From NCBI RefSeq assembly GCF_003790525.1, contig NZ_CP033636.1: DNA of 64,000 bases, one strand, 5' to 3'. Each line of letters opens with the position of its first letter. The stretch's first letter is position 1. Positions 15,001-18,000 of the stretch are shown here, piece after piece. This stretch comes from Escherichia coli (GTDB lineage: Bacteria > Pseudomonadota > Gammaproteobacteria > Enterobacterales > Enterobacteriaceae). A program made the position numbers.

Positions 15001-18000
15001 GCACATGGATGAAACCTACGTGAAGGTCAATGGCCGCTGGGCGTATCTGTACCGGGCCGTCGACAGCCGGGGCCGCACTGTCGATTTTTATCTCTCCTCC
15101 CGTCGTAACAGCAAAGCTGCATACCGGTTTCTGGGTAAAATCCTCAACAACGTGAAGAAGTGGCAGATCCCACGATTCATCAACACGGATAAAGCGCCCG
15201 CCTATGGTCGCGCGCTTGCTCTGCTCAAACGCGAAGGCCGGTGCCCGTCTGACGTTGAACACCGACAGATTAAGTACCGGAACAACGTGATTGAATGCGA
15301 TCATGGCAAACTGAAACGGATAATCAACGCCACGCTGGGATTTAAATCCATGAAGACGGCTTACGCCACCATCAAAGGTATTGAGGTGATGCGTGCACTA
15401 CGCAAAGGCCAGGCCTCAGCATTTTATTATGGTGATCCCCTGGGCGAAATGCGCCTGGTAAGCAGAGTTTTTGAAATGTAAGGCCTTTGAATAAGACAAA
15501 AGGCTGCCTCATCGCTAACTTTGCAACAGTGCCGGCGAAGCTTATCAGCGCTTCCAGTTGCGGACGCTTGACATCCTTGCCGGATGCCTTGTCGCTAAAA
15601 GCGCGATCAACCTTGACGCCTTCCAGTTGCCGTTCCGGGTTCTGGTCGAAGGTGCTGACCCTGATATACCCAATGCGCTGTCCAGTCATGGAATTCCCTG
15701 CAAAATGTCAGGGAAGACTCTATGACCTTCAACGAGATATGTCAATAAATTCAAAATTCAATCCTATCCTGACGCAATTTACACATGGCATCTGACATCA
15801 GGTTAGGGTATGCCTCAACCTGACGGCGGCGAATCACAAGCGTCCGGTTTGACGCTGGTTTCGGTCGCAGTGCTGGCCCGCGCCTGGAAGCGCTGATAGC
15901 ACTCCAGCCCGCAGAAATGCTCCACGTACTCGGCCCCTTCCGGCGTGAAGGCGGCATCGAGCGGGATTTCCTTGCAGCACACGCAGCAACTGGTGCTCGG
16001 TTCATTGGCGTTCATGGTGGTGTTCCTCCATTGGTTGACGAAGCCGACGAAGGCCGCCGCCGGCATCGGCCTGGCGAACAGGAAACCCTGCACCGTGTCG
16101 CAACCCGCCTGCCGCAACCACGCAAGGCAGTCGGGTGTTTCCACACCCTCGGCTACCACCTCCATTGTCGTTTTCAGAAGACGGCTGCACTGAACGTCAG
16201 AAGCCGACTGCACTATAGCAGCGGAGGGGTTGGATCCATCAGGCAACGACGGGCTGCTGCCGGCCATCAGCGGACGCAGGGAGGACTTTCCGCAACCGGC
16301 CGTTCGATGCGGCACCGATGGCCTTCGCGCAGGGGTAGTGAATCCGCCAGGATTGACTTGCGCTGCCCTACCTCTCACTAGTGAGGGGCGGCAGCGCATC
16401 AAGCGGTGAGCGCACTCCGGCACCGCCAACTTTCAGCACATGCGTGTAAATCATCGTCGTAGAGACGTCGGAATGGCCGAGCAGATCCTGCACGGTTCGA
16501 ATGTCGTAACCGCTGCGGAGCAAGGCCGTCGCGAACGAGTGGCGGAGGGTGTGCGGTGTGGCGGGCTTCGTGATGCCTGCTTGTTCTACGGCACGTTTGA
16601 AGGCGCGCTGAAAGGTCTGGTCATACATGTGATGGCGACGCACGACACCGCTCCGTGGATCGGTCGAATGCGTGTGCTGCGCAAAAACCCAGAACCACGG
16701 CCAGGAATGCCCGGCGCGCGGATACTTCCGCTCAAGGGCGTCGGGAAGCGCAACGCCGCTGCGGCCCTCGGCCTGGTCCTTCAGCCACCATGCCCGTGCA
16801 CGCGACAGCTGCTCGCGCAGGCTGGGTGCCAAGCTCTCGGGTAACATCAAGGCCCGATCCTTGGAGCCCTTGCCCTCCCGCACGATGATCGTGCCGTGAT
16901 CGAAATCCAGATCCTTGACCCGCAGTTGCAAACCCTCACTGATCCGCATGCCCGTTCCATACAGAAGCTGGGCGAACAAACGATGCTCGCCTTCCAGAAA
17001 ACCGAGGATGCGAACCACTTCATCCGGGGTCAGCACCACCGGCAAGCGCCGCGACGGCCGAGGTCTTCCGATCTCCTGAAGCCAGGGCAGATCCGTGCAC
17101 AGCACCTTGCCGTAGAAGAACAGCAAGGCCGCCAATGCCTGACGATGCGTGGAGACCGAAACCTTGCGCTCGTTCGCCAGCCAGGACAGAAATGCCTCGA
17201 CTTCGCTGCTGCCCAAGGTTGCCGGGTGACGCACACCGTGGAAACGGATGAAGGCACGAACCCAGTGGACATAAGCCTGTTCGGTTCGTAAACTGTAATG
17301 CAAGTAGCGTATGCGCTCACGCAACTGGTCCAGAACCTTGACCGAACGCAGCGGTGGTAACGGCGCAGTGGCGGTTTTCATGGCTTGTTATGACTGTTTT
17401 TTTGTACAGTCTATGCCTCGAGCATCCAAGCAGCAAGCGCGTTACGCCGTGGGTCGATGTTTGATGTTATGGAGCAGCAACGATGTTACGCAGCAGGGCA
17501 GTCGCCCTAAAACAAAGTTGTACGTAGAACTCGAAGGCAATTTAAGTATGAAAGAAAAGGTAGTTGTTGATAAAGCGATTTCACTCTATACCGAATCATT
17601 CGGCGACCCGGCCCATGAACCCATTATTCTGATCATGGGGGCAATGTCGTCTGCGGTGTGGTGGCCTGATGAGTTTTGTTCCCAACTTGCCAAAATGGGT
17701 CGCTATGTGATCCGGTACGACCACCGTGATACCGGGAAATCAACAAGCTATGAGCCAGGTCAGGCTCCATATTCCGTTGAAGAATTAGCAGATGATGTGG
17801 TTCGCGTCATTGATGGTTATGGTCTGGAAGCTGCTCATTTAGTCGGCATGTCTTTGGGGGGATTTCTTTCCCAGCTTGTAGCTCTCAAGTATCCGAAACG
17901 TGTGAAGAGCTTGACGCTGATTGCTTCAGAACGGCTTGCAGATGCAGATCCGGATATGCCCGCTTTTGATCCTGCCATCATTGAGTATCACCAACGGGCG

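Follow-up and report, generated by a model that had tools for sequence, protein, structure and literature searches.

The region between positions 17266 and 17410 of a stretch of Escherichia coli DNA (contig NZ_CP033636.1) raises the question of which promoter variant transcribes the gene cassettes of the first of two integrons found there, and whether the adjoining P2 region adds a second promoter to it. The stretch analysed, referred to below as the window, is 64 kb long, is in its entirety the multiresistance region of an IncHI2 plasmid, and is numbered from its first base. The initial annotation had read the region as a PcH1 promoter accompanied by an inactive P2, so that a six-cassette array would depend on an intermediate-strength Pc alone, with cmlA1 carrying an attenuator-regulated promoter of its own. 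Our analysis confirms the observation and supports this reading with qualifications; the configuration itself is known for this very integron. We consider it highly probable that 17266-17410 is the 5'CS cassette-promoter region of a sul3-type class 1 integron, with PcH1, no P2 promoter and a mechanism of the kind proposed; no feature of the sequence speaks against it. The features on which this assessment is based are collected in Table 1.

Table 1. Positions of the features of the two integrons within the 64-kb window.
Feature	Position	Strand	Basis or remark
First integron
IRi (presumed), 25-bp inverted repeat on the intI1 side, TGTCGTTTTCAGAAGACGGCTGCAC	16166..16190	+	read directly
intI1, complete, 337 aa, IntI1 R32_H39 variant	16368..17381	-	ORF and translation
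Pc -35 hexamer TGGACA	17266..17271	+	read directly, pattern search, consensus scan
Pc spacer TAAGCCTGTTCGGTTCG, 17 nt	17272-17288	+	read directly
Pc -10 hexamer TAAACT, with TCG before it and no TGN	17289..17294	+	read directly, pattern search, alignment
P2 region TTGTTATGACTGTTTTTTTGTACAGT: TTGTTA (17385-17390), 14-nt spacer, TACAGT (17405-17410)	17385..17410	+	pattern search
LexA box, intact, CTGT-N8-ACAG, CTGTACAAAAAAACAG on the minus strand	17394..17409	.	overlaps PintI1 -10
PintI1 (presumed): -35 TTGCTG (17436..17431), 17-nt spacer, -10 TAGACT (17413..17408)	17408..17436	-	read directly
attI1 region	17471..17546	+	Rfam RF02912 'putative aminoglycoside riboswitch / attI site', 61.8 bits, gathering score 56
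ORF-11 of attI1, extended to 14 codons	17483..17527	+	
Cassette 1: estX (macrolide esterase), CDS 17548..18390, with attC	17518..18469	+	junctions read
Cassette 2: psp (HAD-IB family hydrolase), CDS 18486..19094, with attC	18470..19142	+	junctions, profile, annotation
Cassette 3: aadA2 with attC	19143..19998	+	junctions, annotation
Cassette 4: cmlA1, CDS 20205..21464	19999..21547	+	junctions, annotation
Cassette 5: aadA1 with attC	21548..22403	+	junctions, annotation
Cassette 6: qacH/qacL, CDS 22518..22850, 114-nt 5'UTR, attC	22404..22914	+	junctions, NF000067 QacL 227 bits, annotation
IS440 (IS256-family) transposase remnant and sul3 (24030..24821)	23097..24821	-	ORFs, annotation
Second integron (on the minus strand)
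IS26	41773-42495		
PcW, -10 TAAGCT	41038..41010	-	
intI1, truncated, 268/337 residues left	40923 to about 41720	-	cut by IS26
Active P2 with GGG, ...TTTTGGGGTACAGT, 17-nt spacer	40919..40891	-	
aadA2, lnu(F), then IS26 (38173-38895)			after the active P2

Variant of the cassette promoter

The cassette promoter lies at 17266-17294 on the plus strand (TGGACATAAGCCTGTTCGGTTCGTAAACT) and consists of TGGACA and TAAACT separated by a 17-nt spacer. The hexamers and spacing given in the initial annotation are true to the base, and the interval it had claimed coincides with the span that opens with the Pc -35 and closes with the P2 -10. When the window was searched for the pattern TKGACA-N17-TAARCT, exactly two sites were returned against a chance expectation of 0.02, namely this one and a second at 41010-41038 on the minus strand, which ends in TAAGCT. 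An independent sigma-70 consensus scan identified TGGACA-17-TAAACT as the sole plus-strand promoter-like site in 17200-23200. No TGN extended -10 was found at Pc, where TCG directly precedes the -10 hexamer. By the definitions of Jove et al. 2010 (PMC2791841, Table 1), PcH1 is TGGACA-17-TAAACT, PcW is TGGACA-17-TAAGCT and PcS is TTGACA-17-TAAACT. The cassette promoter of the first integron is PcH1, its hexamers and spacings matching those listed there. Following what is established for Pc, its transcripts would begin a few bases past 17294, traverse attI1 and then enter the cassettes.

An alignment with other Pc variants, the check proposed together with the PcH1 call, bears out this assignment. 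The 5'CS copies used for comparison were sampled at intervals from a ranking of complete E. coli genomes and then aligned, and the Pc region of the first integron clusters unambiguously with PcH1 integrons (dfrA17, dfrA14). In the same alignment it stands apart from PcW (L007, pXH990_1), from PcW-P2 (L009, with GGG) and from the PcW-TGN-10 plasmid L008 (TTGGTAAGCT), which has TGG before the -10 where the present integron has TCG.

A misreading of the promoter would require that the hexamers were mis-indexed and that the true variant is PcW, PcS, PcH2 or PcW-TGN-10; a mis-indexed -10 hexamer, turning the call into PcW or PcS, had been named from the outset as what would overturn it. The exact match to TGGACA-17-TAAACT speaks against such an error. 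Position 17292, at which PcH1 and PcW part, carries A, compared with G at 41012 in the second, PcW copy, and the TGN-10 reading is at odds with the TCG, rather than TGG, that precedes the -10.

The integrase offers a separate line of evidence, as the 5' end of intI1 contains Pc, which is read from the other strand, diverges from the gene and lies upstream of attI1. With the minus-strand codons read directly, the A/G difference in the Pc -10 is silent at Ser30 (AGT/AGC), whereas the PcS -35 would yield N39 and TGN-10 would yield P32. The translated IntI1 carries R32 and H39 (not P32, not N39), which is the R32_H39 variant tabulated for PcW and PcH1 (PMC2791841). Because the protein carries both R32 and H39, PcS, PcH2 and TGN-10 are excluded independently of the promoter sequence; PcS in particular would encode N39, and H39 is found. 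Pattern match, IntI1 residues and alignment together dispose of the mis-indexing, and with it the PcW, PcS, PcH2 and TGN-10 readings are rejected, the sole near-alternative in the window being the PcW of the second integron at 41010-41038. We regard the chance that the call is wrong as vanishingly small. The PcH1 allele would leave IntI1 as the R32_H39 variant.

The plasmid that is identical over this segment annotates the gene as intI1 WP_000845048.1, and its left flank holds Tn21-family (TnAs1-like) tnpR/tnpA. The inverted repeat next to intI1 is presumably IRi. The integron is embedded in the remnant of a Tn21-family transposon, itself part of an IncHI2 multiresistance plasmid.

P2, the LexA box and the second integron

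A search of the whole window for TTGTTA-N14-17-TACAGT returned two sites, again against a chance expectation of 0.02, one at 17385-17410 on the plus strand with a 14-nt spacer and the other at 40891-40919 on the minus strand with a 17-nt spacer. In the first integron the spacer is TGACTGTTTTTTTG, that is, 14 nt without the GGG insertion. An active P2 is TTGTTA-17-TACAGT, and only this 17-nt form has been described as a promoter (PMC2791841); without the insertion, Xiao et al. (PMC6491665) speak of an inactive P2 promoter. Within the window, the 17-nt spacer produced by GGG occurs solely at 40891-40919 and is absent from the first integron. Since its hexamers are only 14 nt apart, P2 is no promoter here, and the initial description of the region as ttgtta-14-tacagt without GGG, and inactive, is upheld both by the pattern search and by the contrast with the second site. 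Both hexamers, TTGTTA and TACAGT, are intact, and one might suppose that the 14-nt-spaced P2, or some further cryptic promoter within attI1, nevertheless adds appreciably to cassette transcription. A 14-nt spacer, however, falls beyond the 16-18 nt range workable for sigma-70, and the sigma-70 consensus scan revealed no further plus-strand site between 17295 and the cassettes. We judge such a contribution to be very improbable.

On the opposite strand, we take TTGCTG and TAGACT to be the hexamers of the integrase promoter PintI1. In agreement with this assignment, PMC8876359 states that the -10 elements of PintI1 and P2 overlap by 3 bp. The LexA box over PintI1 is intact because no GGG has been inserted, and the three-G insertion that creates P2 would break this site (PMC2791841; likewise PMC8876359). 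From published work it is predicted that intI1 of the first integron, its LexA box being intact, would stay SOS-repressed. PintI1 is also described, in PMC8876359, as subject to interference from strong Pc variants; PcH1, being weaker, should interfere with it little.

The second integron has the PcW-P2 configuration (In2/Tn21-like) on the same 5'CS backbone as the first. Over the 933 bp that the two share, they differ only at 17292 (A in the first, G in the second), in the GGG insertion and at 17421 (again A versus G). In the second copy, GGG makes P2 active and breaks the LexA box, neither of which applies to the first integron, and PcW-P2 has been reported at 7 times PcW. The intI1 gene of the first integron is complete, while that of the second is truncated by IS26. 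The disruption of the LexA box thus concerns a copy whose integrase is truncated anyway.

Cassette array and its dependence on Pc

The Rfam search of 16000-24000 gave no match besides RF02912 (attI1). The recombination point G|TT of attI1 falls at 17517|17518, and the 5'CS alignment stops at AAAGTT. Downstream of it, six cassettes were delimited by attC sites and GTT junctions read by eye; the inverted-repeat search for attC sites recovered that of cmlA1 only. Gene identities were taken from the annotation of the 100%-identical plasmid and from NCBIfam; for EstX, which functions as a macrolide esterase (PMC11214618), the model NF033124 aligned over 1-280/280 with 660 bits. With six attC junctions readable, the locus was rightly described as a first integron with a six-cassette array. 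Its 3' segment, IS440-sul3, is atypical and stands in place of qacEdelta1-sul1, followed by a truncated mef(B) and IS26. Pc does not serve sul3, which has the reverse orientation.

Within attI1, ORF-11 (for the concept of ORF-11 and ORF-18, see PMC8876359) is lengthened because the estX cassette begins with GTTGTAC and its core site provides no TAG. The reading frame ends 20 nt 5' of the estX ATG. An in-frame fusion of ORF-11 to estX was considered and rejected, given that ORF-11 and estX are in different frames and ORF-11 has its stop at 17525-17527.

The published Pc strengths derive from E. coli lacZ fusions, and other hosts may differ; with all variants compared in one assay, PcH1 was 4.5-fold and PcS 25-fold above PcW (PMC2791841), values that place PcH1 about 5.6 times below PcS. 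The term 'intermediate strength' in the initial annotation holds insofar as PcH1 ranks between PcW and PcS in this assay, but it is a historical label, and Jove et al. group PcH1 among the 'weakest Pc variants' (PMC2791841). A similar qualification applies to the statement that the array depends on Pc alone, which is probably correct for estX, psp and aadA2 and probably too strong for the distal cassettes. Judging from published work, the first three cassettes would be driven by a rather weak Pc, with expression falling with distance, while cmlA1 would use its own cassette promoter together with chloramphenicol-inducible translational attenuation, and aadA1 and qacH/L would probably also receive Pc-independent transcription.

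The leader and attenuator attributed to cmlA1 can both be recognized. A leader peptide of 9 codons, MSTSKNADK, is encoded at 20077-20106, and the folded leader contains a stem-loop at 20107-20140 and a second stem, CCUUU/AAGGA, that sequesters the AAGGAG Shine-Dalgarno sequence (20191-20196), with z = -2.9. The leader and its hairpins are consistent with the published model of translational attenuation. That model, together with a PcmlA about 145 bp 5' of the start codon, is found in PMC8876359. We infer that TTGCAG-17-TACGAT at 20020-20048 represents the PcmlA hexamers; this candidate lies at the right distance from the GTG at 20205 and scores below the threshold of the consensus scan.

These elements raise the further reading that Pc matters for the first three cassettes only and that cmlA1, aadA1 and qacH/L are expressed mainly from cassette-borne promoters, to which we give about an even chance. 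PcmlA has been demonstrated by experiment and drives cmlA5 where that cassette occupies position 7 in In53, according to PMC8876359; the same review reports promoters in the long 5'UTRs of the related qacE and qacI cassettes. The qacH/qacL cassette has a 114-nt 5'UTR here, and by extrapolation from qacE and qacI it may contain an internal promoter. The aadA1 cassette, located directly 3' of cmlA1, may receive read-through from PcmlA, which is plausible because only attC separates the two genes: no terminator-like match was found between the cmlA1 stop and aadA1, and attC is the sole structure there. Across 17200-23200 the terminator-like matches numbered seven, no more than in shuffled sequence. 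Against this reading, the 5'UTRs of cmlA1 and qac contain no plus-strand sigma-70-like site at the scan threshold, although the scan is uninformative for weak or atypical promoters. Expression from distal promoters would in any event refine the PcH1 explanation and not replace it.

Precedent, distribution and a linked substitution

The combination of PcH1 with an inactive P2 on this array is already published and was fully anticipated. Compared with PcH1 without an active P2 as described by Levesque et al. and by Jove et al. 2010 (PMC2791841), the first integron has the same -35, spacer and -10 and likewise no TGN; it also shares with that reference system the place of the promoter within intI1, the R32_H39 integrase, the 14-nt P2 and the intact LexA box. 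This configuration was the commonest single one in the published survey, accounting for 84/321 integrons (26.2%; PMC2791841). The order of genes, the 3' segment and the Pc equally agree with the sul3-type integron intI1-estX-psp-aadA2-cmlA1-aadA1-qacH-IS440-sul3 (PMC4129628, PMC6491665), and the aligned plasmid pieces differ from the window only outside the integron. For the identical array, Moura et al. 2014 (PMC4129628) reported PcH1 in most isolates and PcW in a few, and Xiao et al. 2019 (PMC6491665) found PcH1 in 22/22 isolates of Proteus carrying the same array, with P2 inactive in all integron-positive strains of their study. In pXH990_1, too, this estX array is found with PcW.

The integron is widely distributed. 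The 12-kb segment 16000-28000 is covered in full at 100.0% identity in many plasmids from Klebsiella, E. coli and Salmonella, and no fewer than 373 PLSDB records match it over 80% or more of its length. The plasmid matches fall into two to three aligned pieces; they depart from the window over a short distance at the IS26/aac(3)-IVa junction, and three of the matching plasmids also differ by an ISKpn26. The junction between 5'CS and estX was present in 133 of the 5426 complete E. coli genomes, and of these carriers, the ones ranked about 1 and 52 show 100% identity from Pc through P2 and attI1 to estX.

The practical value of the variant call lies in annotation only, and integron biology gains nothing new from it. 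What the Pc allele predicts is modest expression of estX, psp and aadA2 together with an IntI1 that SOS would induce and that is of the R32_H39 type, encoded along with PcW and PcH1. Such a prediction is in line with the trade-off of promoter strength against cassette-excision activity described in the literature.

One of the bases that separate the two integrons, the A at 17421, lies within both the 17-nt spacer of PintI1 and the 5'UTR of Pc. In the alignment of sampled 5'CS copies, it is common to the first integron (estX/sul3, PcH1) and one dfrA14 integron; unlike the first integron, the two dfrA17 PcH1 integrons examined are without it, and so is the PcW version of the estX array in pXH990_1. 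The A at 17421 might modulate integrase expression or the function of the 5'UTR; or else the PcW/G version in pXH990_1 might have arisen by homologous exchange of the 5'CS between co-resident integrons, the Pc alleles being swapped and not mutated in place. We put these possibilities forward as improbable.

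Cassette estX and the start of its reading frame

The cassette closest to the cassette promoter Pc in the first, sul3-type integron is estX (17548-18390). Its product was for a long time labelled a 'putative hydrolase' and now fits the NCBIfam model for 'macrolide esterase EstX'. Hydrolysis of 16-membered macrolides by EstX has been demonstrated biochemically (PMC11214618); taken together, the model match and this biochemistry therefore identify the Pc-proximal cassette as a functional resistance gene. RefSeq WP_001354011.1 places the start at ATG 17464, inside the attI1 recombination site, giving a protein of 308 aa, and the frame is open upstream as far as 17311. 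The EstX model (280 positions) is matched end to end from ATG 17548, which is also the start in another RefSeq record, and the 308-aa version probably starts too far upstream.

The ATG at 17548 is preceded by only a weak Shine-Dalgarno sequence, AAGG, and the stop codon of ORF-11, the short open reading frame of attI1, lies 20 nt upstream of it. ORF-11 has the length given in the table because the estX cassette starts with GTTGTAC, without an in-frame TAG. Translational coupling is described for ORF-18 and OXA-1 in PMC8876359, and by analogy a coupling of ORF-11 to estX is possible.

Table. Positions of integron-associated features, the IS26/aac(3)-IVa junction and LexA-type boxes in the window
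Feature	Position	Strand	Details
ORF-11 of attI1	17483-17527		14 codons
Second class 1 integron	38173-42495	minus	IS26 copies on both flanks
IS26 end / aac(3)-IVa remainder	27598-27700		IS26 end at 27661; aac(3)-IVa 27662..28435
LexA-type box	13024-13039		perfect CTGT-N8-ACAG; CTGTATGTATAAACAG
LexA-type box	61797-61812		perfect CTGT-N8-ACAG; CTGTATGTATGTACAG

Variation and database labels in the 5' conserved segment

Position 17421, which falls within both the spacer of the divergent integrase promoter PintI1 and the 5'UTR of Pc, is an A/G SNP. In the alignment of copies of the 5' conserved segment (5'CS), A accompanies the PcH1 variant in the first integron and in a dfrA14 integron, while the G allele is found in two PcH1 integrons with dfrA17, in the copies that have PcW, TGN-10 or P2, and in pXH990_1, a plasmid whose copy of this estX array has PcW. 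This SNP could be a lineage marker or a sign of 5'CS exchange between integrons.

In many plasmids, the PLSDB (RGI) resistance annotation labels the 5'CS/attI1 stretch (17200-17560) as 'AAC(6')-Ib7' or 'AAC(3)-Ib', and the stretch so labelled contains neither cassette. We think that these labels are artefactual and stem from reference proteins whose N-terminal extensions derive from attI1.

Second integron, IS26 junction and LexA-type boxes

The second integron holds two cassettes, aadA2 and lnu(F)/linF. It combines PcW with a P2 that is active through the GGG insertion, its LexA box is disrupted, and its intI1 is cut off after about 266-268 codons. It could serve as a target in trans for IntI1 from the first integron, where the integrase is intact.

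Codon 2 of aac(3)-IVa directly adjoins the IS26 terminal repeat (...TTTGCAACAGTGCC); compared with pKLP00172_4, the window lacks 43 nt here, including the GTG start codon and the upstream region. An ATG at 27623, within the IS26 end, is in frame with aac(3)-IVa, and initiation there could yield a putative 13-residue N-terminal fusion. The eight best PLSDB matches to this junction all have the extra 53-54 nt, so none of these eight gave a second instance of the direct join.

Of the two further perfect LexA-type boxes, which the window has besides the one in the first integron, that at 13024-13039 is part of the IncHI2 backbone, and matching plasmids have umuC at this place.
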